Assembly (NCBI GenBank): GCA_910578655.1
Contig: CAJTQE010000003.1
Coordinates: forward strand, 1-44,456
Length of the DNA stretch: 44,456 nt
Reading direction: 5' to 3'
Origin: an uncultured Christensenella sp.
GTDB taxonomy: Bacteria; Bacillota; Clostridia; Christensenellales; Borkfalkiaceae
Position numbers and translations under genes: made by a program. The number at the start of each line of letters is the position of its first letter. Positions within the stretch are counted from its first letter, which is position 1. Positions 9,893 to 28,772 of this stretch are shown here, piece by piece. The notes beneath the pieces are model-generated. The model had not been told where the DNA came from. It did no database searches and saw nothing but the letters and a program-made list of their open reading frames with translations.

Positions 9893-9922
9893 AAAAGCGA
9901 GGCGAAAAATCGCCTCGCTTTT
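9893..9922. terminator. Bidirectional intrinsic terminator between convergent genes
   Basis: Perfect 12-bp stem AAAAGCGAGGCG / CGCCTCGCTTTT with loop AAAAAT and A/T runs on both sides. It overlaps the spoIIE stop codon. Confidence 0.75.
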
Positions 9923-12188
9923 AAGTTTTTTCGAAGATGCGCGTGCAGAGTACCGTCATATCGTCGTCTACGGTTTTGGCGCGTTCTTTGGCGGCAATCA
10001 AAATAGTATCGGCAAGGTTTTGCGGGTTGAGCGGTTTTAAGGTCTGCAAATATTCGTATAGTTCGGTTGAGGAAGAAAACGCAGAAGTAATTCCGTCGGA
10101 CATAAATACCACCACGTCGCCTGCGCGGAGCTGTTCGGTGCAAACGGTGGGGCGCAGGTTTTCCAGAATTCCGAGCGGCAGGCTTTGACTTTCCAAAACC
10201 TTGATTTCGCCTTCGCGTATGATAATTCCCGCGGGCGAACCTATTTTTACGAAGTCCGCCATTCCCGAACTTAAATTTACGGCGGCAATATCTATGCATG
10301 TAAATCTCTCGTCGCGGTTAAAGGAAAGCAATTTGTTTATCGTGTTCAATACCGTCCCTTCGGGCATCTCCGCGCGGTAAAACGCTTCTATGAGCGATAT
10401 AGCCGTTGCCGAAACTTTTTTGGCATATACGCCGCTGCCCATTCCGTCTGACAGAGCCATAAGAAAACTGTGCTCGTTAATTTTGATTACCGAGTGGGTG
10501 TCGCCCGAAACGTTTTCTCCGCTTTTAATTGCATACGCTACGCCGAACGCCGCGTCCAGCCGAGGCGGCGCGCTGAATATAAAGCAGCTTTTTTCATCGT
10601 CGTAACTGAGTTTGTCTTTTAACAGATATTTTCTGTTTGCCGTTTCGCTTATAATGTTTGTCACCGCTTTCAGATTTACGCGTCCGCAAATCACTGCAAG
10701 TATTTCCATATTCTCGCCGTCTATATAAAGTTCGGGGCAGGCTATGCCGTCAGTGGAAAGCTTATTTTTCAGCGCTGTTTCAAGTTCTGTATATTCTCGT
10801 GAAGAACGGCTTAATTCAACGGCGCAGTTTTTCATAACTTCGGCAACGCCGCGCGCCTGTTCGGCAAGCAGTATCCGTCCGCTTTTGGCGTTTTCGGCTT
10901 CCGTCATAAACCTGCGGTATTCGGCGATAAGTCCGTTTAATCTGACCAAAACGTCGGTGGGGTTTGCGCAGTTTACCGTAACTTCCTTAGGCAGGTCTAT
11001 TAAGTTTGCCTTGCCCTTGATGCACCCCGAATCGATAAGTTTTTTAAAGCCCGTATACACGTTGGTGCGCGCGCATATTTTTGCACGGTCACAGGTTTTG
11101 CAGCATTTTTCTTTTAACTCTTCAAGCATACGGCTGCGTGAAGCGCTGTCGTTCACGTCGTCGTCCAAAGCGTTAAACGCGCACTCTATTTCGCGGAAAA
11201 CTTCGCTTATTCTGTATAGTTTTTCGCCCGTGCGGCGGCGGCTGCGCTCTACTGCGGTGTCGGGCAGGACTTCCTTTACGAGAAGTTTGTGCTTGATATT
11301 TTTAAGATAGCTTTCTGAAAATGCTACGGGTAAAGCCAGCGTGCAAAGCAAAAGCAGGGCGCGGAAAACAATCAGCACCACAGAGCAATCGAAACCGCCT
11401 TTAAAATAGCAGTAAACTGCTGTCGGCGCTGCCGCGATAACGCTGGGGGCGAATCTGCCGGCTCCGGAAAACAGCAGCGCAAGCGTGGCTATCGCCAGAT
11501 ATGCGGTAAACGGCTCGGACGAAAGCGATACTGCGGAGGGGGGTATTGCTGCAATAAGCGCGAATATGAGCGCGGACGGCGAACGCGCGAGGCGGACGGA
11601 AAACGTTATAAGTCCTGCCGTTATCGCCGTGTATGCGAAAAATCCGCAAACGTTGTATACACCCGTACCGAATGCGGTATATACTATCGCCAGACATACA
11701 AGTTCATCCTCTTTCAGTTTACAGCGCAGAATTCTGTATAAAAGCGCGTAGACCGATTTTAAAGAGAAGTATGAAAATACAATTACGGCAACGGCGGCGA
11801 CACCCTTAAATGCATATTCGTTTTCCAAAAACGGTACGCCCGTCATTGTCTGCGCGCGCGCGAAAGCGACGTAAGGCGCAAGCGCAATGGCAAGGTATGC
11901 CGCCGCTTCTATGCGTATTTTGCGCTTTGTTCTGCGGTAAATAAACGTCACAAGACCCAAAAACGCCGCCTCGAAAAGCCGTAAGAGCGTTGCCACCCAG
12001 TCAAGATAAATTATCGAGCCCAAAAGATAAATTACCGGCGTTAAAATTACGTTTGCGCCGCAGGTCAGCATTGCAAAGCAAAGCCCCAAAGAAAACGGTA
12101 TTTCGGCAAGAGTTTTGTTTATGAATATTACCGTTATGGCATAGAGTATATATAAAGCCGTACTTTTAGCGTTTATTTTTAAAGTCAT
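9921..12188 (-). CDS. spoIIE: Stage II sporulation protein E (PP2C phosphatase)
   Basis: 755 aa. About 10 N-terminal TM helices, a central regulatory region, and a C-terminal PP2C domain (VSGDTHSV...LSDGMGSG...FMSDGI). Confidence 0.9.
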   Translation of the reverse strand: MTLKINAKSTALYILYAITVIFINKTLAEIPFSLGLCFAMLTCGANVILTPVIYLLGSIIYLDWVATLLRLFEAAFLGLVTFIYRRTKRKIRIEAAAYLAIALAPYVAFARAQTMTGVPFLENEYAFKGVAAVAVIVFSYFSLKSVYALLYRILRCKLKEDELVCLAIVYTAFGTGVYNVCGFFAYTAITAGLITFSVRLARSPSALIFALIAAIPPSAVSLSSEPFTAYLAIATLALLFSGAGRFAPSVIAAAPTAVYCYFKGGFDCSVVLIVFRALLLLCTLALPVAFSESYLKNIKHKLLVKEVLPDTAVERSRRRTGEKLYRISEVFREIECAFNALDDDVNDSASRSRMLEELKEKCCKTCDRAKICARTNVYTGFKKLIDSGCIKGKANLIDLPKEVTVNCANPTDVLVRLNGLIAEYRRFMTEAENAKSGRILLAEQARGVAEVMKNCAVELSRSSREYTELETALKNKLSTDGIACPELYIDGENMEILAVICGRVNLKAVTNIISETANRKYLLKDKLSYDDEKSCFIFSAPPRLDAAFGVAYAIKSGENVSGDTHSVIKINEHSFLMALSDGMGSGVYAKKVSATAISLIEAFYRAEMPEGTVLNTINKLLSFNRDERFTCIDIAAVNLSSGMADFVKIGSPAGIIIREGEIKVLESQSLPLGILENLRPTVCTEQLRAGDVVVFMSDGITSAFSSSTELYEYLQTLKPLNPQNLADTILIAAKERAKTVDDDMTVLCTRIFEKT

Positions 12189-13863: not shown

Positions 13864-16230
13864 ATGACCGAACTTGAAAAAATTTTAAAATTCATATCTC
13901 CGCACAGGCAGCCCGACGAAGCGTTTTTCAGGGAACTGCTTGACTTCGGACGTCAGCGGACTTACGAGGACGAGCGGATAAGGGCGGTTATGCTTGCGCT
14001 TAAAGCATTGCATATAAATAAGCTTAAATCAAAGATAACCGATGCAAAGCGCCGCCGCGAGCAGTTAAATTCGGGTGAACACACTGCCGAAAGTTTTAAG
14101 CAGGTAACTGCGCTGGACGCAGAAATCAAAAACCTTAACGCAAAGCTTTTTTTATATAAACCCTTGTTTGACGAGCCGTATTTTGCACGTATGGATTTGG
14201 TTGACGATAAAGAAGGATACAACAGTTATTATATAGGCAAACGCGGCGACCAGACCCTTGAAATAGTAGACTGGCGCGCTCCTCTTGCAAGAAGATACTA
14301 CCAAAAAAGCCAGACGGCTTTTAAAATAAACGATTATAATTATAAACTTATCCTGCGCCGCGCACTGCGCACGGGCGGCGGCAAAGTGCTCGATATGAAA
14401 AACGAATATCTTTCGGTAAAGGGATACCTTTCGCAAGAGGAAATTGCCGGCAGGGATGAGGCGATTATATTCGACCCCTTTTTAAAGGAAATACTTGAAA
14501 CGCGCAAGGAAAAGCGCGAAATTTGCGACATAATCGAAACTATACAGGAAAAACAGTACGAAATTATCACCCTGCCCGAAGCCGCCGAATTCGCTTTGCA
14601 GGGCGTTGCCGGCAGCGGAAAAACTATGATAATGCTGCACAGGCTGTCATATATATTATATAACAATGAAAGCCTGCGCCCTTCCGACGTTCTGATGGTT
14701 ACGCCGTCAAACTCGTTCAACGCGTTCATTGACGAACTTGCAAAAATTCTGGAGTTGGAACGGGTTAAAACATCGACTTTGGACGGTTATTTTCTGAGCG
14801 TGTTAAAGAATTGCGGCGTTGACGCGGAAAAGATGCTCGACCCGTTTCTGCCGTTGCCGAAAGAGTTTTTAAGTTACGTTTACAGCCGAAAGTTCGTGGA
14901 TGAAATACGGAAAAAACTTGCAAAAATATACGACGGAATCTACGGTATGTTCGCATCCGACGGTTGCAGGGAGGTGGCTGAAAATGTTTCGGACGCCCTG
15001 AAAAGGCAGGAAGAGCGGTATTTTGCAATTAAGAATGCAAGCCTGAGGGTAAGGCGTTCGGTACTCGGCGAGATAAAGGAAAAGGCGGACGGAGGACTTT
15101 ACTACACCAAGCAGTTCAGAAATATGTTTAACTGTATAACGGACGTAAGGGAATTTTTAGGGCTGTTTTCCGACGGACGAATGGGCGAGCAAGCGTTCTT
15201 TTACCGGCAGTTACTGTCATTCTACAAATCGCTTAAATTCCTGTCAAAGTACTCTGAAAAAATTTGTTTGAACGCCGTATCGGATTTAAACGCGCTTTGC
15301 GTTTCCGTCGAAAAAGAGATTTCCGACCTTAAAAGATACAAGATAACCGTCGACGGCATTGAACGTCTGACCTACGCCGAAAGGATAGAAAAGCGCGAAC
15401 AGCTTAAAAAAGAAATTTCGGAAGCGGTGCGGTCCGTTCAAGCAATCGCGGAGGAGTTTGTTCCTCTGTACGATTTTGCCGAAGTGCTGCGCGGGGAAAA
15501 TTATTTGGTAGCCGTCGGCAAGTGTCAGACTACTTACGATATTTTGCGGTTTTTCTACCGTGAAACCGTCAAAAAAATAAAGAACCGTTTTTCCGTAACC
15601 ACCAAAAAGCTGTGCGCTGCCGACCCGTATGCGCTGTGCCTTATATTGTGCGAACTCGGTTTGCCGCTGACACCGAAATACAGATTCATATTCGTGGACG
15701 AGGCGCAGGATATTTCACTGCCCGAATACGAGGTGCTGCGCGCAATCAACGACAGGGCGGCGTTCAACATCTTCGGCGATTTAAAGCAGAATATTACTCC
15801 GTATCGCGGAATTAAAGATTGGGGCGAGCTTGGCTATAAGCAATTTAATCTGAGTTTGAATTACCGCAATACCAACAAAATAGTAGATTTTGTGTCGGGC
15901 AACCTTGCGATAGATATGCAGGCGATAGGCACGGAGGGCGGAGAGGTTGATATAATTTCAAGCCGTGCCGTAACCAAATATCTTTCCGCTTGCGGCGGAC
16001 TCAGTGCGGTTATTTGTTCCGAGGCGAAGCTGCCTGACTATATAAGAAAGAGCTATAACGTCGTGCGCAGCACGGGGCGCATTTCAAAAAGCAAAATCAA
16101 TATTATGACCGTCTACGAAAGTAAAGGACTTGAATTTACTTCGGTTGCCGTTGCCGACGGGGATATGTCCGATAACGAAAAATATATTGCCTATACCCGT
16201 GCGTTAAAAAATTTAGCTTTGATAAGATAA
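13864..16230 (+). CDS. helD: HelD-like UvrD-family (SF1A) helicase / RNA polymerase recycling ATPase
   Basis: 788 aa. N-terminal coiled-coil region followed by PYFARMDL...YYIGKRG...IVDWRAPLARRYY, a HelD hallmark as I recall it from B. subtilis HelD. Walker A GVAGSGKT (14602..14625), Walker B FIFVDEAQD, C-terminal VYESKGLEF. Confidence 0.75.
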   Translation: MTELEKILKFISPHRQPDEAFFRELLDFGRQRTYEDERIRAVMLALKALHINKLKSKITDAKRRREQLNSGEHTAESFKQVTALDAEIKNLNAKLFLYKPLFDEPYFARMDLVDDKEGYNSYYIGKRGDQTLEIVDWRAPLARRYYQKSQTAFKINDYNYKLILRRALRTGGGKVLDMKNEYLSVKGYLSQEEIAGRDEAIIFDPFLKEILETRKEKREICDIIETIQEKQYEIITLPEAAEFALQGVAGSGKTMIMLHRLSYILYNNESLRPSDVLMVTPSNSFNAFIDELAKILELERVKTSTLDGYFLSVLKNCGVDAEKMLDPFLPLPKEFLSYVYSRKFVDEIRKKLAKIYDGIYGMFASDGCREVAENVSDALKRQEERYFAIKNASLRVRRSVLGEIKEKADGGLYYTKQFRNMFNCITDVREFLGLFSDGRMGEQAFFYRQLLSFYKSLKFLSKYSEKICLNAVSDLNALCVSVEKEISDLKRYKITVDGIERLTYAERIEKREQLKKEISEAVRSVQAIAEEFVPLYDFAEVLRGENYLVAVGKCQTTYDILRFFYRETVKKIKNRFSVTTKKLCAADPYALCLILCELGLPLTPKYRFIFVDEAQDISLPEYEVLRAINDRAAFNIFGDLKQNITPYRGIKDWGELGYKQFNLSLNYRNTNKIVDFVSGNLAIDMQAIGTEGGEVDIISSRAVTKYLSACGGLSAVICSEAKLPDYIRKSYNVVRSTGRISKSKINIMTVYESKGLEFTSVAVADGDMSDNEKYIAYTRALKNLALIR

Positions 16231-16251
16231 ATGTAATTTGTCAATAATCTA

Positions 16252-16280
16252 TTGTCAGGCGATATAAAATATGATAGAAT
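16252..16280 (+). promoter_or_regulatory. Sigma-A promoter TTGTCA-17-TAGAAT with extended -10 (TGa)
   Basis: TTGTCA at 16252..16257, a 17-nt spacer ending in TGA, TAGAAT at 16275..16280. RBS GAGGAA and ATG 16344 lie downstream. Confidence 0.5.
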
Positions 16281-16343
16281 GAGTATGCGCGCTTGCGTGT
16301 GAAGAATTACCCGAAAAAATACATCTGTTGAGGAATTGTCCGT

Positions 16344-19300
16344 ATGGCTAATAAAGCGAAAAGCACAAGTATGATTGAATTAGAGGGCGAACTTTTAAAT
16401 GCGGTAAGCTATGCAACCTTTTATTGCAGGCTGCCGCTGTTTACGACTTTTAAAATTTTTAACCGTTCGGAAGAGAACGTCCAAAACGTCACCGTCAGTA
16501 TAAGCGGAAACGAGCTTATTTTGCCGACGGAAATTTCCGTTGCGGAAATTCCGCACGAAAGCAGCGTTTCCGTTACTGCGGAAAATATCTTAAACCCCAA
16601 ATACCTTGCGGATTTAGAGCAACCCGAGAAATGTAAGGTTGTCATTAAACTTACGCACGGCAAAGAAAACGTATGTGCTTTAAAGACCGAAGTGCTTGCC
16701 CTGCCCATAGACAGTTGGAGCGGACTTTCCGGCAATGCGGAAATGCTTGCCGCGTTCGTGCGCCCTAAACTTGCCGACTGCCAAAAAATTCTTGCAGAGG
16801 CAGGTTTGCAGTTAAAGACGTGGGGCTATTCGTCGGAGTGGAGCGGTTATGCGGGCAACGACAGAAACGCTGTCCGCAATGCCGTTGCCGCAGTATATTC
16901 GGCGATACGCCACCTCAATATCGAGCGTAAGGCAAGCGCAGATTTAACCGAAACGGTCAGCACGGGCGATATAAGCAAAATCGTAAAAAACAAAAGCGCT
17001 ACACCTTTAGAGCTTGCGCTTTTCACTGCGTCCTGCTTTGAGGCGACAAAATTAAATCCCGTCATAGTTATAGGTAAAAATAAAGTGGGCGTCGGCGTAT
17101 GGCTCTATGAAAGCTGCTTTTCGTGTTCCGTACAGGACGATATTTCCGTCGTCGAAAGATATATTATGGACGGCGTAAACAACCTTGCCGTTGTAGATTG
17201 CGACGATATGTTCGCGCACAAGAACGCAAGCTTTACAACGAGCGCGTCGCACTTCGAATCGTTCATACGCAGTAATTCGTTCGACGTCTGCCTCGACATT
17301 AAGCGCAGCAGAATAGGTGGAATTTTTCCTCTGCCTTTAAAGGTGAAAACAAAATCCGGATACGAGCTTCTGGACGATAAAGAGCTTTCGTACAGTGCAA
17401 AACCGCGTCAGCTTATCGACGCAAGCAAGTACGAATATTCGCGTACGGAATCAAAGGACAAGTCCTGGCAAAGGCGACTTCTCGATTTGTCGCTAAGGAA
17501 CAATCTTTTAAACTTCCGTTATAAGCGTGAGTGCCTGCACCTTCTGTCGTCGGATTTGTCGGCGTTCTGCGAACGGCTTGCACTCAAAGATAAATTCAAA
17601 TTAAGCCCCCCGGCGTCGGCGATAAAGGACGCGGCGTACTTCGGCGGCGCAACCGTCAAGAGTATGGAGGAACTTATCGCGATAGAGATGAAGTCGGGGC
17701 AGCTCAGGTGCTATTCAAGCGCGGACACTCTCTCCGAAGTAGTTACCTCGCTTATAAGAAAATCGCGCGCGTCGGAGGAAGAGACGGGCGCAAAGACGCT
17801 GTATCTTGCGTTCGGATTTCTCAAATGGAAAAATAAAAACGACAGCGAAGGCAAATTTGCGCCGCTCGCGCTTATGCCCGTCAACGTCAAAAAGGGAAAG
17901 AATTCGGTCATTAATATAGAGGTCGGCGAGAGTTACGAAGTCAATACCACGCTGCTTGAATTTTTGAAACAGGAATTCGGAATAGACATTCGCGGCCTTG
18001 ACGGTAAAGAGCTTTCGCCCAAGGAAATAATCACGGTGTTCCGCGCAAAGACGGCGAATATGAAAGGCTGGGCGGTCTATGAGGACGTCTATCTTTCGCA
18101 GTTCACTTTCGCCCGTTACGCAATGTGGGCGGACGTAAAAAAGAATATTTCGGAATACAGGAAAAATCCGCTTATTGCAAGCTTGCTTACAAATGCGAAT
18201 AAAATGGAAAACAACAAACTTTCGGGCGAAGTTGAGGACGACGGGGAGCCGTGTTCGGTTATAACGCCGCTGCCCTGCGACAGTACACAGTACGCCGCCG
18301 TTGCAGAGTCGGCAAAGGGAACGACTTTCGTTTTGCACGGCCCGCCCGGAACGGGCAAAAGCCAGACCATTACCAATATGATAGCCAACGCAATATTCAG
18401 CGGTAAGCGCGTACTTTTCGTCGCTGAAAAGCAAGCCGCTTTGTCGGTCGTAAAAAAGCGTCTTTCGGAGATAGGCATCGGCGATTTCTGTATGGAACTT
18501 CATTCGGGCAAGAGCGCGGATAAGGGTGAAATAGTCCGCTCTATAGAAAGCACTCTTGCGCTGAAATGTCGGCTTTCGGACGATAAATTCATCGCCGCAG
18601 GCGAAAGAATCAAGTCGGCGCGAGGCACTTTGAGGGCGCCTTTGGACGCACTGCACAGAAAGCGCAGGCTGGGCGTATCCGTCTACGAGGCGATTTTATA
18701 TTACTTGCAGAATAAAAATGCGCCGGAACTCGTCGACATAGAAAGCACGTTTTACGATTCGCTGACCGAAGAAAAACTTGCCGAGTGCGAAAAGATGCTT
18801 ATCACATCGCAGGCTGCGGCTGAGGAGTGCGGCGGAGTATACCGTTCGCCTTTTTCGGGGGTATGCCTCACGGAATGCGACAGGGGCGTAAGGACGGGCG
18901 TTCTGTGCGCTGCGGAAGTGCTGGTTGCCGAACTTAAACATTTAAAAAACTATATTGCGCTTTTCAACGATACTTTCAATCAAAAAGTAAGCAAGTTTAC
19001 CGCGCTTAAATTAAAGTCGCTTTCAAGCATTTTAGGCATTTTGAAAAGCGGCGAACTTGACGAATTTTACGAATGCGACGAAACGGAATTTTATAAATTC
19101 TATAACGCTAATATTCAGTACGACAGCGCAATTAAGCTTTGGGCAAACCGTTTTAAAACTCTGCCCGAAATAGGCAAACTTGCAGATAAAATCGATTCGG
19201 AACTTGAAAATTGGGGCGATAACTACCGTTCGTCCAAACATTTGCTGACCATATTAAAGAGAATGAACAAGTGTACCGACACTCCTTTAAAAGAAAGGGA

Positions 19301-21959
19301 AGAGGTGGACTGGTTAAAGAGGGCGAAAGAGCTTGAGGAATATAAAAAGCGTATGTTCTCGAATACCAAATTAGGCGTTCATTTTTCGGCTATGGGCGGC
19401 GGCATAAACGCAAAAAAGCGCGAGGACTTTTTAAAACCGCTGTACGACTTGCATACTCTGTGTTCACAGGTATTTATGGACTACAACGCAGACGCGTTCA
19501 ACAGCGTATGTATAGGCGCAAGCGGCGGACAGTTGAAGCCGCTTGTAACGGGGCTTATGCTTGCGATAGCTTCTTTTAACAAGAGCTGCGAAACGTTTTT
19601 AAAGACCCTTAAAATAGACAAAAAGGAAACGGCGGACTGCGATTTGTTCGAATACTATACCGTCAAGTGTAATGCGCTTATCGACAATATCGATATGCTT
19701 CCGGCCTGGTGCCTTTACAAGTCCACTGCCAAAGGGCTTGAAGACAACGGACTTAAATTTATGACTGCCGCAATGGAAAGCGGAAGAATAAGCGGAAGTG
19801 CGATTCTGTCTTCGTTCAGAAAAAACGTTTACAGAAACTTTATTCAAACCAACATTCCCGCCGATGAAGATTTGGCTGCGTTTTCTGCAAGCGTGCAGGA
19901 GGCAACGGCGGCGTCGTACGCGCAGCTTATCGAAGAGTTTAACGAGCTTACGCGCACTTACTTGCGCGACGTGCTGATTTCGCGTCTGCCCGAACCCGAA
20001 ACGGAGGGTCCGCTTGCGCTTGAACTTATGGCGTTTAACCGCAGTATAAAGGGCAATATGCGCGGTTTCAATATCAGAAATCTGTTTACGGAAGTACCTC
20101 AGCTTATGCGCATAGTCGCGCCCTGTATGCTGATGAGTCCGGTAACCGTTTCGCAGTACCTGCCCGCCGACCCCGAGCTGTTCGATACGGTAATCTTCGA
20201 CGAAGCGTCGCAGATGCCCACATGCGAGGCGGTTCCGTCGCTTGCGCGCGCAAAGAGCGCGATTATCGTCGGCGACCCTAAGCAGATGCCGCCCACGACG
20301 TTCTTTACTGTGTCCGGTCAGGACGAGGACAATCCCGAAACTGAAGATTTGGAATCGGTTTTGGACGACTGCCTTGCGCTCGGCATACCCGAAAAGCATC
20401 TCGTATGGCATTACCGTTCGAAGCACGAAAGTCTGATAGCGTTCTCGAACATAATGTATTATTCGGGCAGACTTTGCACTTTCCCGTCGCCCGACGCGCT
20501 TGAAAGCAAGGTTACTATGAATTACCTTGAAGACGGCGTTTACGAAAGGGGCGGAACCAAATGCAACAAAAAGGAGGCAGCCGCGCTCGTAGACGAGGTT
20601 ATAAAAAGACTTCAGGACAGCAGACTTAAAAATTCAAGCATAGGAATAGTGACTTTCTCAACCCCTCAGCAGGTGTTGATAGAGCGTATGCTTTCAAAGA
20701 AAATTTCCGAAAAGCATCTTGAGGACGTTGCGTACGAAAGGGAGGAACCGCTGTTTGTCAAAAACCTTGAAAACGTACAGGGTGACGAACGCGACGTAAT
20801 TTTATTCTCGGTGTGCTACGGTCCGGACGCGCAGGGCAGAATTTCCCTGAACTTCGGCCCGTTAAACCAACTCGGAGGTTGGCGCAGGTTAAACGTTGCA
20901 GTGTCGCGCGCAAGGGAAGAGATGATTGTATTCTCGTCTATGCGCTATTCTATGATAGATATGTCGCGCACCAATTCGCGCGGTGTGGCCGGACTTAAAT
21001 CTTTTCTTGAATTTGCCGAAAAGGGAAGAACGAGCATTTCCGTCAAGTCCAATGAAATTATACTGAATAAGCAGGGCATAGGTAAATTCATTGCCGAAGA
21101 GCTTTCGTCATACGGCTACGAATGCCGTTGCGACGTCGGCGTTTCCGACTTTAAAATCGACGTCGGAGTGGTAGACCCTCAAAACAGGCACAACTTTATT
21201 CTTGCCGTGCTTTGTGACGGTTCGCAAAGTTCGTTCTCGGTCAAGGACAGAACTATTTTGCAGGTTCAGACCCTTAAACGCAACAACTGGAACGTGGTCA
21301 GGCTGTACGCGTTAAACTTCTTCAACAACCCCAAACGTGAAATTAAAAAGATTAAAGACTTCCTCGACAGACTGACCGCAAGCGCGAAACCGTCTGTTTC
21401 AAGCTTCAAAAAACCTTATAAGGCTTGCAAGGCAGACGTAAAGGAATGTACGCCCGACTATATTTTAAGCGGCAAAAACGACGCGGAAGTAGTGCGCGTC
21501 ATTAAGGCGGTCGTCGCTGCGGAGGAGCCTATTTCGCATCAGTTTTTAATAAAGCGTACGCTTGCGCAGTACGGAATATCGAAGTTCGGCATAAAGCTTG
21601 AAAACAAGCTGACTGCGCTTATCAGGCTGTGCGGCTTCGGAAGAAGCAAAATTCTCGGCAACAAATATTATTTCCGTACCGATAAATATTCCGGGTTTGA
21701 CAGGTACCGCGTGGAGGAGGGAACCCCCTTGCGTTCCGCCGACACGGATTTTACTCCGTATGATATAATTTCGCTTGTAAAGGGAATTCTGTTAAACAGG
21801 GTCAGCGTATACGTGGAAGAGCTTCTCCCTGCAGTATTGCGGGAACTCAAAGTCCGCTCGTCGGAAAAATTCACCACGTTTATATCCGCCTGCATTGACG
21901 AGGGCGTGAAACGCGGCATATTCATAAGAAGTATTTCGGACAAGTTGACTTTATCGTAA
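16344..21959 (+). CDS. Giant SF1B (Upf1/DNA2-like) helicase with DUF4011-like N-region, REase-fold (DUF559/Vsr-like) domain and DUF3320-like C-terminus
   Basis: 1871 aa. LLDLSLRNNLLNFR motif, Walker A GPPGTGKSQT (18339..18362), DEASQ (20199..20213), GDPKQMPPT, WHYRSKHESLI, VQGDERDVILFS, LNVAVSRAREE. Next comes CDVGVSDFKIDVGVVDP...LAVLCDG...DRTILQVQTLKRNNWNVVRLY, which looks like a PD-(D/E)xK-type fold. The tail contains EEPISHQFLIKRTLAQYGI. Confidence 0.85.
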   Translation: MANKAKSTSMIELEGELLNAVSYATFYCRLPLFTTFKIFNRSEENVQNVTVSISGNELILPTEISVAEIPHESSVSVTAENILNPKYLADLEQPEKCKVVIKLTHGKENVCALKTEVLALPIDSWSGLSGNAEMLAAFVRPKLADCQKILAEAGLQLKTWGYSSEWSGYAGNDRNAVRNAVAAVYSAIRHLNIERKASADLTETVSTGDISKIVKNKSATPLELALFTASCFEATKLNPVIVIGKNKVGVGVWLYESCFSCSVQDDISVVERYIMDGVNNLAVVDCDDMFAHKNASFTTSASHFESFIRSNSFDVCLDIKRSRIGGIFPLPLKVKTKSGYELLDDKELSYSAKPRQLIDASKYEYSRTESKDKSWQRRLLDLSLRNNLLNFRYKRECLHLLSSDLSAFCERLALKDKFKLSPPASAIKDAAYFGGATVKSMEELIAIEMKSGQLRCYSSADTLSEVVTSLIRKSRASEEETGAKTLYLAFGFLKWKNKNDSEGKFAPLALMPVNVKKGKNSVINIEVGESYEVNTTLLEFLKQEFGIDIRGLDGKELSPKEIITVFRAKTANMKGWAVYEDVYLSQFTFARYAMWADVKKNISEYRKNPLIASLLTNANKMENNKLSGEVEDDGEPCSVITPLPCDSTQYAAVAESAKGTTFVLHGPPGTGKSQTITNMIANAIFSGKRVLFVAEKQAALSVVKKRLSEIGIGDFCMELHSGKSADKGEIVRSIESTLALKCRLSDDKFIAAGERIKSARGTLRAPLDALHRKRRLGVSVYEAILYYLQNKNAPELVDIESTFYDSLTEEKLAECEKMLITSQAAAEECGGVYRSPFSGVCLTECDRGVRTGVLCAAEVLVAELKHLKNYIALFNDTFNQKVSKFTALKLKSLSSILGILKSGELDEFYECDETEFYKFYNANIQYDSAIKLWANRFKTLPEIGKLADKIDSELENWGDNYRSSKHLLTILKRMNKCTDTPLKEREEVDWLKRAKELEEYKKRMFSNTKLGVHFSAMGGGINAKKREDFLKPLYDLHTLCSQVFMDYNADAFNSVCIGASGGQLKPLVTGLMLAIASFNKSCETFLKTLKIDKKETADCDLFEYYTVKCNALIDNIDMLPAWCLYKSTAKGLEDNGLKFMTAAMESGRISGSAILSSFRKNVYRNFIQTNIPADEDLAAFSASVQEATAASYAQLIEEFNELTRTYLRDVLISRLPEPETEGPLALELMAFNRSIKGNMRGFNIRNLFTEVPQLMRIVAPCMLMSPVTVSQYLPADPELFDTVIFDEASQMPTCEAVPSLARAKSAIIVGDPKQMPPTTFFTVSGQDEDNPETEDLESVLDDCLALGIPEKHLVWHYRSKHESLIAFSNIMYYSGRLCTFPSPDALESKVTMNYLEDGVYERGGTKCNKKEAAALVDEVIKRLQDSRLKNSSIGIVTFSTPQQVLIERMLSKKISEKHLEDVAYEREEPLFVKNLENVQGDERDVILFSVCYGPDAQGRISLNFGPLNQLGGWRRLNVAVSRAREEMIVFSSMRYSMIDMSRTNSRGVAGLKSFLEFAEKGRTSISVKSNEIILNKQGIGKFIAEELSSYGYECRCDVGVSDFKIDVGVVDPQNRHNFILAVLCDGSQSSFSVKDRTILQVQTLKRNNWNVVRLYALNFFNNPKREIKKIKDFLDRLTASAKPSVSSFKKPYKACKADVKECTPDYILSGKNDAEVVRVIKAVVAAEEPISHQFLIKRTLAQYGISKFGIKLENKLTALIRLCGFGRSKILGNKYYFRTDKYSGFDRYRVEEGTPLRSADTDFTPYDIISLVKGILLNRVSVYVEELLPAVLRELKVRSSEKFTTFISACIDEGVKRGIFIRSISDKLTLS

Positions 21960-22001
21960 AGAGTAACAAATAAGAAAAGACTGCTGTAATGTTATATAAA
22001 T

Positions 22002-22031
22002 AAAAAAACGGACTTTCAAGTCCGTTTTTTA
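22002..22031. terminator. Bidirectional intrinsic terminator between convergent genes
   Basis: Stem AAAAAAACGGACT / AGTCCGTTTTTT with loop TTCA, flanked by A-run and T-run. The stop codon of the minus-strand orphan lies in the loop. Confidence 0.8.
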
Positions 22032-22762
22032 TTTTGCTCCCATTTAAGCATTTTCATTTCAAAAAGTTTTATGTAGCAGGGGATGATAAATTCAAAACAG
22101 GAGAATAAAGCTAAAATATAGTCTAAACTATCGCAGTCGTCATTTTTAAGGTAAAATTTTCCTTTATTATTTTTAATTAAGCGCATTAAAAACGGTGAAA
22201 TGTACGGCAAATCTTTAATATAACGGTCAATTCTTTTTCCTTGTTTTACTTTTTTAAGCTTAATTGCAATTATAAATTCAGCTGCTATCAAACAGTACCC
22301 GTGCAGAGCATCTCTATCAAAAGATTTGTCAAAATTGCTTTCATTGATTTCCGTATTTATAATTTCAGCAAAAATGGGGTAAATGTTTTTTAAGTAGTTG
22401 TCTATACCGTATTTAAAGGGATATATTTCATTCTCATCTCCATAATACGTTTTGTATTTTGGCGCTTGGGCAAACATATAGTTTATTCTGTTGCAGAAAA
22501 CCAAAAAACACGCCTTATCAAAGTTTTCAATGAAAATGTTGAAATAGTCTTTAATAAAGGTTACTTGTGAAAAATCTACCGCTTTATGTAATTCTAATTC
22601 TACAAAATATTTGTCAAACGGTATAGTGTCGCCTATATTTATCTGCTTAAACGCTACGTTTTCAGCATAATAGTTTTTTATTAAAGTATTTACTTGAATA
22701 TCAGTGAAAACATTTGATTGTTCTTCTATAATCTCACTTTTACTAAACTTTTGTTGTTTCAT
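22016..22762 (-). CDS. Hypothetical protein (AT-rich orphan, no recognisable motif)
   Basis: ORF 22016..22909. Start moved to ATG 22762, which has GGAGAAAA directly upstream on the minus strand. 248 aa, rich in K/N/I/F/Y, no signal peptide. Divergent from the XRE gene. Confidence 0.6.
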   Translation of the reverse strand: MKQQKFSKSEIIEEQSNVFTDIQVNTLIKNYYAENVAFKQINIGDTIPFDKYFVELELHKAVDFSQVTFIKDYFNIFIENFDKACFLVFCNRINYMFAQAPKYKTYYGDENEIYPFKYGIDNYLKNIYPIFAEIINTEINESNFDKSFDRDALHGYCLIAAEFIIAIKLKKVKQGKRIDRYIKDLPYISPFLMRLIKNNKGKFYLKNDDCDSLDYILALFSCFEFIIPCYIKLFEMKMLKWEQNKKRT

Positions 22763-22830
22763 TTTTCTCCTTTGTAAAATGAGGATATTTTTGTAAAAAG
22801 GTATACTGTTGTGGGCTATCAAGCATTTTT

Positions 22831-22844
22831 CCCACAATTGTGGG
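22831..22844. promoter_or_regulatory. Perfect 14-bp palindrome CCCACAATTGTGGG (putative XRE operator), copy 1
   Basis: Located 12 nt upstream of ATG 22857 and overlapping the only purine-rich RBS candidate (GTGGGA). An extra half-site TTGTGGG sits at 22809..22815. Confidence 0.5.
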
Positions 22845-22856
22845 AATATGTTTAAT

Positions 22857-23066
22857 ATGGAAGACAAATTTAAAGACAGACTTAAAGAGTTGAGGCAAGA
22901 TAAGCACATTGGTCAAAAAGCATTGGCAAAAATTTTGAATATCAGTCACGGAGCTATCAGCTTTTGGGAAAACGGACAGCGTGAGCCTACTATGAGTAGT
23001 TTGATAGCTTTGGCTGATTATTTTGATGTTTCAATAGACTACCTTGTCGGCAGAAAAAATGATTAA
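22857..23066 (+). CDS. XRE-family helix-turn-helix transcriptional regulator, copy 1
   Basis: 69 aa starting at the internal ATG (MEDKFKDRLKELRQDKHIGQKALAKILNISHGAISFWENGQREP...DYFDVSIDYLVGR), a canonical Cro/CI-type HTH. The TTG start at 22809 in the ORF track is unlikely. Confidence 0.85.
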   Translation: MEDKFKDRLKELRQDKHIGQKALAKILNISHGAISFWENGQREPTMSSLIALADYFDVSIDYLVGRKND

Positions 23067-23126
23067 TTAGTTTAAAAGATTATAATAGATTATAGGGTAT
23101 ACTGTTGTGGGCCGTCAAGCATTTTT

Positions 23127-23140
23127 CCCACAATTGTGGG
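23127..23140. promoter_or_regulatory. Perfect 14-bp palindrome CCCACAATTGTGGG (putative XRE operator), copy 2
   Basis: Same element exactly 296 bp downstream of copy 1. Extra half-site TTGTGGG at 23105..23111. Confidence 0.5.
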
Positions 23141-23152
23141 AATATGTTTAAT

Positions 23153-23362
23153 ATGGAAGACAAATTTAAAGACAGACTTAAAGAGTTGAGGCAAGATAAG
23201 CACATTGGTCAAAAAGCATTGGCAAAAATTTTGAATATCAGTCACGGAGCTATCAGCTTTTGGGAAAACGGACAGCGTGAGCCTACTATGAGCAGTTTGA
23301 TAGCTTTGGCTGATTATTTTGATGTTTCAATAGACTACCTTGTCGGCAGAAAAAATGATTAA
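23153..23362 (+). CDS. XRE-family helix-turn-helix transcriptional regulator, copy 2
   Basis: Protein identical to copy 1, with one synonymous difference (Ser AGT vs AGC). Confidence 0.85.
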   Translation: MEDKFKDRLKELRQDKHIGQKALAKILNISHGAISFWENGQREPTMSSLIALADYFDVSIDYLVGRKND

Positions 23363-23389
23363 GCGGCGAAGATTACTTCGCCGCTTTTT
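23361..23389 (+). terminator. Intrinsic terminator after XRE copy 2
   Basis: Perfect 11-bp stem AAGCGGCGAAG / CTTCGCCGCTT with loop ATTA, followed by TTT. It is outside the duplicated unit, and copy 1 has no terminator. Confidence 0.85.
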
Positions 23390-23415
23390 AGTTATAGACT
23401 GAAAGCTATAATAAG

Positions 23416-24150
23416 TTATTTAATTATATCCTGCATATCGTATTTTCCCGAAGGTTTGCCTGCAATGAAAATCGCGGCTTTTATCGCGCCTGCGGCAAAC
23501 ACCTTTTTGGAGTGCGCCGAGTGGGATAGGGTGATGATTTCGTCCTCGCCGGCAAACATAACCTCGTGTTCGCCGACGATAGTTCCGCCGCGTACGGCGT
23601 GAATACCTATCTCGTTTCCGCGTTTCGTCGCGCCCTCCCTGCCGTATATATAGGGTTTTCCGGTCGCGTTCGCGCTCTCTGCAAGCATAAGCGCGGTGCC
23701 CGACGGCGCGTCAACCTTTTGGCTGTGGTGTCTTTCAATTATTTCAACGTCAAACTTTTCACCGAGAATTTCCGCGCTCTGCCTTACAAGTTTCATTAAA
23801 AGATTTACGCCGAGCGAAAAATTAGCCGTTTTGAATATAGCAATGCTTTTCGCGCTGTTCTCTATAAGTTGCAAATCCTTATCCGAAAATCCCGTCGAGC
23901 CGAGAACGACGGGCACGCCGTTTTTTGCTGCCCATTCAAGTTCGCTTTTCAAAACGGTCGGGGAGGAAAAATCGATAATTACGTCGACCTTTTCTTTAAC
24001 TTTTTCAAAGCTGTCGTAAACGGGGATTTTACTTTCGTTATTGCGCACGTCGACTCCGCAGACTGCCTTCGCATTTTTATCTCCGCGCAAAAGCTCTTCA
24101 ACCGTTGCGCCCATTTTACCGCTTATTCCGCAAATCAAAACGTTTATCAT
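23416..24150 (-). CDS. dapB: 4-hydroxy-tetrahydrodipicolinate reductase
   Basis: 244 aa. N-terminal GISGKMG and signature ERHHSQKVDAPSGTAL. Confidence 0.9.
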   Translation of the reverse strand: MINVLICGISGKMGATVEELLRGDKNAKAVCGVDVRNNESKIPVYDSFEKVKEKVDVIIDFSSPTVLKSELEWAAKNGVPVVLGSTGFSDKDLQLIENSAKSIAIFKTANFSLGVNLLMKLVRQSAEILGEKFDVEIIERHHSQKVDAPSGTALMLAESANATGKPYIYGREGATKRGNEIGIHAVRGGTIVGEHEVMFAGEDEIITLSHSAHSKKVFAAGAIKAAIFIAGKPSGKYDMQDIIK

Positions 24151-27807: not shown

Positions 27808-27844
27808 CGACTCCGCCCCGTTAACGGTGTTTTTCATAGAGATT

Positions 27845-27879
27845 AAAGCAAGGACGATAAAAACAGTTCTTGCTTTTTT
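27845..27879 (+). terminator. Terminator-like hairpin after ppa
   Basis: AAAGCAAGGAC ... GTTCTTGCTTT stem with one G-U pair and a 10-nt loop, followed by TTT. Confidence 0.55.
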
Positions 27880-27970
27880 ATTACGGTTATGCTATATTGA
27901 AACTACTTTAATCGGTAATCCGGCGTTTTGACGCCGCAATTATTATACCGACACTTTCAGAGGTCGTAAA

Positions 27971-28639
27971 ATGGCGCAAACAATAAAAAGTTTAAGCGGA
28001 ATGATGCAAGAAATTCAAGTCGAAGGCTTTCAGCTTAAAAAATTGAAAAGAGGACTCTATGCCGGATACAATTTAGCTTATGGCGTTGTAGACGATAAAA
28101 TCGAAACAGGATTTAAAATTCTTTACCAAAAGGAAAATGACCATAATGCAAAAAATTCGATTGAACAAACTATAAAAGATAATATCGAATATGTCAGAAC
28201 AATTAACTTAAACTATTCCCCGAAAGGCAGTTCGCTTATAAAATTAATAGATTTGGAAGGCATAGTTTATTTGGTCGGGTATGAGGTAAACCGCATATCG
28301 ATTGAATTTGAAGTCGATCAATGCAGTTTCGATCACGATGGTATTTTTTACACCCGCGCGGAAGTGAACAAGATGATTAAAAAAGCAATAAAATTATATG
28401 TAAAGAAAGTAAAAATTATTTTGAGAAATAAGCATTTCAAGCTTGAAAGTTATAAACTGCAAGACAAATTTGAACTGATTGATGTCAGTAAAGTTATATG
28501 TGTCCACTATGTAACATTATCGGGAAAAGCGTATGGCAAAGACTGCAATTTTACTATAAGGGACTTTGAAACCGAAAATATCAGAAAACGATTAAAAATC
28601 GAACTTAATAAAATGAAAAAGGAGAAGTTTTCAAAATAA
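27971..28639 (+). CDS. Hypothetical protein (AT-rich orphan)
   Basis: 222 aa. RBS-like AGAGG 7 nt upstream. No signal peptide, TM segment or recognisable motif. Lys-rich C-terminus. Bracketed by terminators. Confidence 0.6.
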   Translation: MAQTIKSLSGMMQEIQVEGFQLKKLKRGLYAGYNLAYGVVDDKIETGFKILYQKENDHNAKNSIEQTIKDNIEYVRTINLNYSPKGSSLIKLIDLEGIVYLVGYEVNRISIEFEVDQCSFDHDGIFYTRAEVNKMIKKAIKLYVKKVKIILRNKHFKLESYKLQDKFELIDVSKVICVHYVTLSGKAYGKDCNFTIRDFETENIRKRLKIELNKMKKEKFSK

Positions 28640-28696
28640 AAGGCTGCCTTTATGTCATTGTACAATAAATTTCTTACCGTTCCGCATAAAAAAAGT

Positions 28697-28735
28697 ATAG
28701 CGCACTAATCTTCGCAAACGAAGATAGTGCGCTAT
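28697..28735. terminator. Bidirectional terminator between the orphan gene and the LysR gene
   Basis: 17-bp stem ATAGCGCACTAATCTTCG / CGAAGATAGTGCGCTAT with a single bulged A and loop CAAA. A-run upstream, T-rich downstream. Confidence 0.75.
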
Positions 28736-28772
28736 TTCTTTGTCCGCAAGAAAATCTCTTTAAAAGATATTC

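Follow-up and report, generated by a model that had tools for sequence, protein, structure and literature searches.

A strain-variable islet with a doubled XRE repressor cassette and a divergent 248-aa gene, probably a costly cargo under lock, in an uncultured Christensenella

INTRODUCTION

The gating of toxic cargo by small regulators of the XRE family is already a known theme, represented by the controller (C) proteins of restriction-modification (R-M) systems, by CapH, and by the antitoxins of toxin-antitoxin (TA) modules, and the idea that XRE regulators restrain defence genes with self-toxic products is well established (bioRxiv 10.1101/2025.09.30.679545). Here we report the analysis of an islet of ~1.4 kb within a 44,456-nt stretch of DNA from an uncultured Christensenella sp. 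(contig CAJTQE010000003.1 of assembly GCA_910578655.1), the whole of which is referred to below as the window. The islet is located between a helicase gene of the Hhe/PDC-S37 type and dapB. It contains two nearly identical copies of a cassette encoding a 69-amino acid (aa) XRE regulator, and, divergent from them, a gene for a 248-aa protein that a preliminary description had called an orphan, a label that we retain as the name of the gene. We consider it slightly better than an even bet that the islet is a horizontally acquired, strain-variable module in which a doubled autoregulated repressor keeps the divergent 248-aa gene, a probably costly cargo, under XRE lock.

Among the closest described systems, the C proteins and C-boxes of type II R-M systems (C.PvuII, C.AhdI, C.Esp1396I) combine a small HTH_3 protein of ~70-80 aa with tandem palindromic boxes next to its own gene, autoregulation, and the gating of a potentially self-toxic partner, and two predicted operators, O1 and O2, are likewise found upstream of each XRE copy of the islet. 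The C gene, however, is co-oriented with the endonuclease gene, which it usually precedes, and a methyltransferase gene is adjacent, whereas here the predicted target is divergent and is not a nuclease, the predicted operators lie in overlapping back-to-back promoters, and the islet has no endonuclease or methyltransferase domain. The immunity repressors of phages and integrative and conjugative elements (P22 C2, lambda cI-Cro, ICEBs1 ImmR) include the closest solved relatives of the XRE, have operators shared by divergent promoters, and are matched by the location of relatives of the present module beside integrases. Unlike them, the XRE of the window lacks a C-terminal dimerization or cleavage domain, a protease partner of the ImmA/COG2856 type, and accompanying phage genes. 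No peptidase family match corresponding to the proteases of ImmR/ImmA, CapH/CapP or DdrO/IrrE systems (COG2856/M78, HExxH) was obtained, and the matches to PHROGs were confined to regulators and integrase, which is not the content of a temperate phage immunity region.

In CapH of the cyclic-oligonucleotide-based antiphage signaling systems, AbrR of Ambrosia, and the HTH_VI and RmrA regulators of PADLOC, an XRE protein silences a potentially harmful effector, and the surroundings of the islet contain defence candidates; the effector described here, in contrast, matches none of 5,027 PADLOC models and has no protease or sensor partner. Type II TA modules with XRE/HipB-like antitoxins (HipBA, HigBA, MqsRA, Xre-RES) are similarly compact and mobile, with an XRE DNA-binding part and a palindromic operator, but differ from the islet in its divergent genes, a bare helix-turn-helix (HTH) without a neutralizing domain, the lack of a known toxin fold, and interchangeable XRE partners. 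A further close system is a module of gut Clostridia for which neither a name nor an annotation was found in the libraries searched, and which appears to be the canonical setting of the effector family: its effector (~250-266 aa, 35-42% identity) is divergent from two tandem XRE genes. The XREs of the canonical module are 104-112 aa long and 39% identical to each other, whereas those of the window belong to another subfamily, have 69 aa without the C-terminal extension, come from genes that are 99% identical, and have no recombinase or relaxase beside them. New here are the family of the effector, the near-obligate pairing of its members with XRE genes, and the geometry with an intercalated repressor copy.

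RESULTS AND DISCUSSION

Anatomy of the islet

The islet consists of the following features, in coordinates of the window.

22003..22030, both strands: bidirectional terminator-like hairpin with a 12-pair stem and T-runs on each strand, common to the convergent helicase gene (+) and the orphan gene (-)
22016..22762, minus strand: gene for the 248-aa protein (orphan gene), an open reading frame (ORF) with the ribosome-binding site (RBS) AAAGGAG before its ATG
22763..22799: junction region L, with the orphan RBS GGAG (minus strand, 22768-22771) and without a consensus-grade leftward promoter
22800..23066, plus strand: XRE cassette copy 1, with a degenerate O1 at 22801-22816 (half-site 22809-22815), O2 at 22829-22846 and the coding sequence at 22857-23066 (69 aa)
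22822 to 22817, minus strand: -35-like TTGATA in copy 1
23067..23095: spacer B, containing the 10-bp unit AGATTATA twice; its 3' end, ATTATAG, supplies the -10 element TATAAT (minus strand, 23094 to 23089)
23089..23118, minus strand: predicted leftward sigma-70-type promoter P_left (TTGACG, 18 nt, TATAAT), with O1 of copy 2 in its spacer
23096..23362, plus strand: XRE cassette copy 2, with O1 at 23097-23112 (half-site 23105-23111), O2 at 23125-23142 and the coding sequence at 23153-23362 (69 aa)
23361..23386, plus strand: intrinsic terminator-like hairpin with an 11-pair stem, including 7 GC pairs, followed by a T-run, between XRE and the convergent dapB

A repeat finder detected two direct copies of 267 nt, located at 22800-23066 and 23096-23362, whose starts are 296 nt apart, and base-by-base comparison of the copies revealed three mismatches (22817, T/C; 22818, A/G; 22997, T/C). 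Because the change at 22997 is synonymous, both copies encode identical 69-aa proteins. The 29-nt spacer between them reads TTAGTTTAAAAGATTATAATAGATTATAG. In both copies a 14-bp palindrome, CCCACAATTGTGGG (22831-22844 and 23127-23140), ends 12 nt before the ATG (22857 in copy 1), and it extends into a perfect 18-mer, TTCCCACAATTGTGGGAA, located 10 nt upstream of the ATG. The 14-bp core is matched twice in the window against 0.03 matches expected, and none of 100 shuffles reached two. The accompanying half-site TTGTGGG (22809-22815 and 23105-23111) is similarly concentrated, with six of its seven occurrences in the window inside the two cassettes and 2.8 expected window-wide. GC content over 22000-23350 is 0.28-0.36, compared with 0.45-0.56 in the flanks. 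A terminator-like hairpin follows copy 2 only, and Rfam gave sub-threshold matches alone, all on the terminators. The preliminary description had been made by reading the sequence, and its statements on the repeat, the differences, the spacer, the palindrome, the half-site, the terminator, the ORF and the AT-richness proved correct throughout on re-reading.

Allelic series in sister strains

Sister strains were recovered by exact look-ups of DapB and of a near-identical XRE, and their flanks are ~99.3% identical to those of the window. The alleles compared (the window, L001, L002 and L045-L049) fall into four forms.

Full allele (window, L001, L002): orphan intact, two XRE copies
Orphan 3' deletion (L045, L046): 21973-22636 lost, that is, the terminator and the 3' five-sixths of the orphan, at a microhomology ACAAATA; one XRE copy
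Orphan 5' deletion (L047, GCA_949747675.1): 22188-22770 lost, that is, the RBS and ~192 codons; one XRE copy
Whole-module deletion (L048, GCA_949279985.1, and L049): 22059-23417 lost; no XRE copy

All three deletions destroy the orphan, each with a different microhomology junction, and they are independent events. The hairpin at 22003..22030 was kept in the L047 and L048 alleles and lost in L045. Within this set, an intact orphan was never accompanied by just one XRE: two XRE copies accompany the intact gene, and one or none is left in the orphan-less alleles, which bears on the copy-number comparison that the preliminary description had proposed. Although the sample is small, it is the best available evidence that the orphan gene may be costly and that the second XRE copy may be kept only while the gene is intact. 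The earlier suggestion that the product is harmful when derepressed is upheld in part: recurrent deletion of the orphan fits a gene that would be costly when expressed, though such loss may also be neutral.

The XRE cassette itself varies little, with at most 3 differences in 267 nt across all alleles. The remnants of the orphan are, by contrast with a background of 0.6-0.8%, 12-15% diverged next to the deletion junctions (22083-22178 versus L047 and 22639-22696 versus L045), without frameshifts or stop codons, which hints at diverged orphan alleles that predate the deletions or at mutagenic repair at the junctions.

The two module-less alleles were considered as a naive empty site and rejected as such, since orphan codons are retained and dapB is truncated, as expected of a deletion scar. 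In the scar the last 13 codons of the orphan (MKMLKWEQNKKRT and the stop) are fused to a dapB gene that is one codon shorter. The change in DapB is located at 23416-23418 of the window and 6730-6732 of L048, where an end in MQDIIK becomes an end in MQDII, the stop codon being created at the junction with orphan-derived sequence. As no naive empty site was found, the insertion boundaries of the islet are not definable.

Reality and origin of the duplication

The duplication has the form A-B-A, where A is the 267-nt cassette and B the spacer. The same structure, together with the orphan, is present in L001, a contig of 72.7 kb that recurs in four samples, and in L002 from another sample. Two contigs of the unitig type that encode an identical DapB (L043 and L044) end exactly 30 nt inside copy 2, which is the expected behavior at the edge of a repeat that has two different right-hand neighbors. 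The recurrence of A-B-A in independent assemblies and the unitig breaks therefore indicate that the duplication, which had been flagged for a check against misassembly, is no artefact of this record. These are short-read data, in which more than two copies are possible and variants in the interior of the repeat cannot be phased.

Several variants are shared by both copies. Positions 22985/23281 carry G,G in the window and L002 and A,A in L001, and positions 22997/23293 carry T,C, C,C and T,T over the three full-allele assemblies. Such variation of both copies in the same way fits gene conversion and fits equally a collapse of the repeat interior in the de Bruijn graph, so that it is suggestive only.

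B occurs once, and the left flank of copy 1 and the right flank of copy 2 are unlike it. A simple tandem duplication, which would give A-B-A-B or A-A with a single novel junction, was rejected on these grounds, and a Campbell-type integration does not yield A-B-A and was dismissed as the source of the 29-bp spacer. The right edge of A falls exactly on the stop codon, and B has at its 3' end the sequence that natively flanks this type of cassette on the upstream side. Two scenarios would fit the arrangement: an old duplication, or old paralogs, homogenized by gene conversion, and an insertional template-switch duplication. Because both fit, the near-identity of the copies does not establish recency. 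The proposal that the repressor was recently doubled is accordingly not sustained, given the A-B-A form, its presence in several strains, the repeat edge at the stop codon and the variants shared between copies, all compatible with an older, converted duplication.

A leftward promoter behind the intercalated copy

Within the window, only the junction between spacer B and copy 2 keeps the conserved leftward promoter, TTGACG-18-TATAAT (23118 to 23089, 11 of 12 consensus positions). This predicted promoter, P_left, is the only near-consensus promoter that faces the orphan, ~320 nt upstream of the orphan ATG, and copy 1, with its XRE gene and two operator sites, sits between the two. No minus-strand terminator was found between P_left and 22762. 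Where region L meets copy 1, GTAAAA replaces the ATTATA element that precedes O1 of copy 2 and O1 in four relatives of the cassette (L014, L016, L018, L021), and minus-strand candidates there reach at most 8 of 12 positions. Since the promoter is tied to copy 2, the effect of the second copy is probably architectural and not simply one of dosage; the earlier idea that doubling merely raised repressor dosage does not take account of a conserved divergent promoter that belongs to copy 2 and not to copy 1.

Both leader differences between the copies (22817 and 22818) fall in the -35 hexamer of the leftward promoter. This hexamer reads TTGACA in L014, which serves as outgroup, and in the alleles with one copy; copy 1 has TTGATA instead, and copy 2 has TTGACG. 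Both derived states are weaker by one position. The closeness of the hexamer to the edge of the repeat, which conversion tracts seldom reach, is an equally good reason for the persistence of these differences.

The 69-aa XRE and its predicted operators

The XRE is a bare HTH_3 domain (PF01381; 60.5 bits versus a cut-off of 23, E 1.6e-16, residues 9-63 of 69), and its start codon is backed by 69-aa homologs. Among solved structures, those closest to it in sequence are the DNA-binding domains of ICEBs1 ImmR (7t8i, 3.8e-08) and P22 C2 (4e-07). Among PADLOC models it matched HTH_VI (2.6e-12), RmrA N-termini and CapH (3.4e-08), and weakly Control_protein (2.5e-5), and there are weak sub-threshold matches to antitoxin models of the HipB, MqsA and PezA type. 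The subfamily is large and consists of 67-75-aa regulators in gut Clostridia; the XRE was also found on contigs of 123.8 kb and 25.3 kb, outside the allele comparison.

The four relatives mentioned above, which are 66-80% identical to the XRE of the window, are single-copy, and each is divergent from a different small protein of 164-209 aa without a Pfam match above the curated cut-off, three of the four having membrane-like hydrophobic stretches. The XRE cassette thus seems to be a portable lock that may be reused for different cargo. The back-to-back promoter and operator regions of these relatives are located at L014:614-695, L016:3915-4000, L018:3904-4000 and L021:3900-4000.

The layout common to the four consists of ATTATA, O1 (of the type CTTACA-N-TGTAAG), GTCAAG, yATTTTT, O2, AAwA and the start codon. 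Read on the minus strand, it gives TTGAC(A/T), 17-18 nt and TATAAT (11-12 of 12 positions), with O1 exactly filling the spacer. In the conserved design, O1 would thus occlude a strong leftward promoter, and O2 would lie immediately before the start of the XRE gene. Since the predicted operators lie inside the leftward promoter in the relatives, XRE control of the divergent gene would belong to this conserved design; the comparative layout speaks for the control proposed in the preliminary description, while operators and promoters are assigned as consensus matches. The half-sites also covary with the recognition-helix motif, SHGAIS occurring with (C/G)(C/T)(C/T)ACA in the window and L014, and SKGIIS or SNGIIS with CTTACA half-sites in the other relatives. 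This covariation supports, without proving, that the XRE would bind these predicted operators.

The 248-aa protein and its family

An exhaustive profile search collected at least 118 clusters for the family of the 248-aa protein, 99 of them at E<=1e-10 and most with 240-270 aa, where a word-indexed search recovered only three proteins. The gene is thus no orphan in the sense first given to the word, while the companion statement that its product has no recognizable motif is borne out: Pfam, NCBIfam, PHROGs and PADLOC (5,027 models) yielded nothing significant, the best Pfam match being NusG_add at an E of 0.015, below the cut-off, and no abortive-infection (Abi) family of Pfam was matched. None of 65 aligned family members has a Pfam domain, and no recognized toxin family was found among them. 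Sequence-profile searches of the PDB returned only spurious matches to eL8 or PR10 at an E of 0.002 or worse.

With the 65-sequence alignment, AlphaFold2 gave a confident model (predicted local distance difference test, pLDDT, 93; predicted template-modelling score, pTM, 0.90), compared with a pLDDT of 45 from a three-sequence alignment. The model is mainly helical with a C-terminal beta-hairpin at 196-205. Foldseek found no match at E<1 in PDB or BFVD, so that the profile and structure searches left the protein without a structural relative in these sets and without homology to an ordinary family. The weak PDB matches are enriched in the winged-helix domains of transcription factors (GntR YtrA, PdhR, PrfA, RovA, NtcA), with probabilities of at most 0.2. 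Conserved positions are mostly hydrophobic or aromatic, the only near-invariant polar residues being E34 (98%) and K237 (91%), and the median pI is 6.2. The family alignment contains no catalytic-type motif, no conserved His and no HExxH. From this lack of catalytic-type conserved residues we infer that binding or structural action is likelier than an enzymatic one, and an enzymatic activity of the protein appears unlikely.

Three other interpretations of the gene were discarded. A 297-aa extension of the ORF is unsupported by the family alignment; a membrane protein was rejected because the sole hydrophobic stretch (216-234) is not kept hydrophobic in relatives; and family members "fused" to amylase, TIG or CBM20 are likely run-ons of gene calling that give no functional hint. 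Neither tblastn with the orphan nor blastn with the cassette gave a match among 50,697 phage and 72,556 plasmid records, and one relative is located on an IMG/VR contig, beside an integrase only.

Coupling of the family to XRE genes in other genomes

In 17 of the 19 other loci with a readable upstream flank, the family gene is divergent from XRE genes, most often from a tandem pair of old paralogs within integrative or mobilizable elements. The divergent arrangement was recorded in L003-L012, L023, L025, L026, L028, L032-L036, L038 and L039. The partners there represent three further XRE types beyond that of the window, which makes at least four unrelated types overall. The pairing is unconfirmed at L027, which has too little upstream sequence, and at L024, where a degraded copy lies beside a different small HTH gene. 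A relative with 42% identity, P0002, is recorded on 153 contigs, and wherever its locus was inspected, a tandem pair of XRE genes (109 and 105 aa) lies divergent from it. These canonical tandem XREs are old paralogs, 39% identical to each other, and have no BLASTP similarity to the XRE of the window. The tandem arrangement also occurs in the more distant members L032-L036.

In most relatives the family gene is located between the XRE pair and genes for integrases, relaxases or recombinases, often co-oriented with the latter; the neighbors include tyrosine integrases, large serine recombinases and Mob_Pre relaxases. Given that the mobility genes vary or are missing while an XRE partner is nearly always present, the unit appears to be a self-contained regulator-effector cassette. 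The view of the islet as a foreign regulator/effector pair is in this respect supported, as the module is foreign and strain-variable and its family is nearly always coupled to XRE genes.

Some further details of the canonical modules were recorded. The tandem XRE paralogs of 104-112 aa overlap and have a C-terminal extension of ~40 aa each (L003:5139-5778, as well as L023, L025, L026, L032 and L033), their intergenic region contains repeated TCCCTA and ATGTCGAAA motifs, and a WYL-type HTH regulator is present inside the P0002 element.

Proposed function and alternative explanations

On the comparative evidence, the islet may be read as a self-contained cassette made up of an XRE lock and an effector, a type of unit found on integrative or mobilizable elements and in defence islands. 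In the mechanism that we favor, dimers of the 69-aa XRE would bind O2 just upstream of their own start codon and thereby repress their own synthesis, and would also bind O1 in the spacer of the strong leftward promoter, which would repress the divergent gene. Transcription of the orphan would start ~320 nt upstream, at the promoter of copy 2 (predicted start near 23082 on the minus strand), with a leader antisense to XRE copy 1. RNA polymerase moving toward the orphan would then have to pass two further operators and would meet XRE transcription head-on, so that the second copy would act as a second lock rather than a second dose. If the orphan were costly or toxic when expressed, its three separate losses in sister strains, with one XRE copy or none left behind, would follow. 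We know of no precedent for such an antisense nested double lock in XRE cassettes.

Several observations weigh against this interpretation. Promoters and operators are assigned as matches to a consensus only, an unrecognized promoter of the orphan may exist in region L, and the best candidates for the XRE's own rightward promoter reach 7-9 of 12 positions, none of them convincing. The variants common to both copies could reflect short-read assembly collapse. Conservation of no polar residues other than E34 and K237 would be unusual for an enzymatic toxin, and no known toxin or defence domain is present. Some family members have a single XRE as partner, one of 170 aa in L038 and L039 and one of 97 aa in L028, where the family protein is only 22% identical. 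Deletion of AT-rich foreign DNA can be neutral, and the association of two XRE copies with an intact orphan is drawn from about three related full alleles, which may form one clade, versus three deletion alleles.

Another explanation, which we consider doubtful though serious, is that the islet is the stranded switch remnant of an integrative or mobilizable element. In this case the 248-aa protein would serve the element as a regulator or DNA-binding factor without toxicity (for instance as anti-repressor, activator, or accessory of excision or replication with a winged-helix-like subdomain), the XREs would be the repressors of the element, decay would be neutral and the second copy non-adaptive. 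The position of the family gene in relatives, next to mobility genes and often in their orientation, agrees with this, as do the enrichment of winged-helix domains among the weak structural matches, the scarcity of catalytic-type residues, the absence of a recombinase near the module in the window, and deletions that are consistent with decay. However, the module accompanies three types of recombinase or relaxase or none at all (the window, L025), as expected of a self-contained cassette, and the structural probabilities do not exceed 0.2. The orphan ORF has moreover remained intact, with a strong RBS, in three assemblies, and three deletions within 1.4 kb among strains that are ~0.7% diverged is a high number for neutral loss. 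A neutral origin of the duplication alone, as an unstable copy-number polymorphism whose co-occurrence with the intact orphan reflects shared ancestry, is quite unlikely in our view. The full alleles do differ by very few single-nucleotide polymorphisms (SNPs), direct repeats of 267 bp are prone to recombination, and alleles with one copy occur. Against this, the A-B-A form recurs in several samples and differs from a simple tandem duplication, the second copy carries the sole leftward promoter of consensus grade, and the canonical module of the family also has two tandem XREs, from an independent ancient duplication (39% identity).

The resemblance to a type II TA addiction module, in which the XRE as antitoxin would neutralize a 248-aa toxin by direct binding and repress the locus, had been raised in the preliminary description. 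XRE/HipB-like antitoxins are common, the sub-threshold matches noted above are to models of this kind, and the module is mobile, strain-variable and AT-rich. Nevertheless, we regard such a module as very unlikely: the XRE genes (+) and the 248-aa gene (-) are divergent and form no co-oriented operon, the 69-aa XRE is a DNA-binding domain without a toxin-binding extension, and no toxin family was detected. Further, the same XRE subfamily is paired elsewhere with unrelated small membrane proteins, pairing of the orphan family with at least four unrelated XRE types is hard to square with a specific protein antidote, and the XRE was kept after loss of the orphan (L045, L047). Beyond the favored reading of a costly gene under XRE lock, a stronger version of it would make the 248-aa protein the founder of a new class of XRE-locked conflict effectors, acting in abortive infection, exclusion or addiction, without detectable structural relatives, and spread as a minimal cassette among the integrative elements and defence islands of gut Clostridia, with the antisense repressor in the 5' leader of its target forming a nested, possibly bistable, double lock. 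This we think unlikely as a whole, while a role of the protein in abortive infection or defence is possible.

Under the favored reading, the undescribed family, given its XRE pairing, may be put forward as a candidate effector of a new kind in gut Firmicutes, serving in conflict or maintenance. A promoter located behind an intercalated repressor copy would, if confirmed, mean that duplication can rewire a repression circuit, beyond changing dosage. The locus also yields a clean operator and promoter model for a widespread subfamily of 69-aa XREs, and a single species offers a ready-made genetic experiment, since its alleles include the module in full, two distinct losses of the orphan that leave one XRE copy, and the removal of the entire module.

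Neighborhood of the islet and minor observations

No tRNA genes were found in the window. The SpoIIE homolog encoded at 9921-12188 (minus strand) identifies the host as an endospore-forming Firmicute. The gene at 13864-21959 encodes an 1871-aa protein with DUF4011, AAA_11, AAA_12, MTES_1575 and DUF3320 domains that matched the PADLOC models PDC-S37 (930 bits) and Hhe. A UvrD/GajB-like helicase of 788 aa is encoded ahead of it, and the two form a candidate two-helicase defence pair that is conserved in all strains examined. At two loci of relatives, PDC-S31/DUF2971 proteins and a type IIG R-M enzyme are located beside the module (L025:6228-10575 and L005:11197-12216). A defence-related context (window, L025, L005) is on this evidence suggestive only.

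Two further differences between strains were noted near the islet. A 949-bp segment at 27824-28772, with a Pfam-less ORF of 222 aa (27971-28639, plus strand), is missing from L047 and L048, which have ~34 nt instead, and is a presence/absence polymorphism 4.4 kb from the XRE islet. Within the helicase gene, the window differs from L001 and L002 by six SNPs in 23 bp (20143-20165), five of them at 3-nt spacing (20153-20165); they are located in a GC-rich patch (0.54-0.56) and resemble either a short tract of recombination or successive changes at third codon positions.

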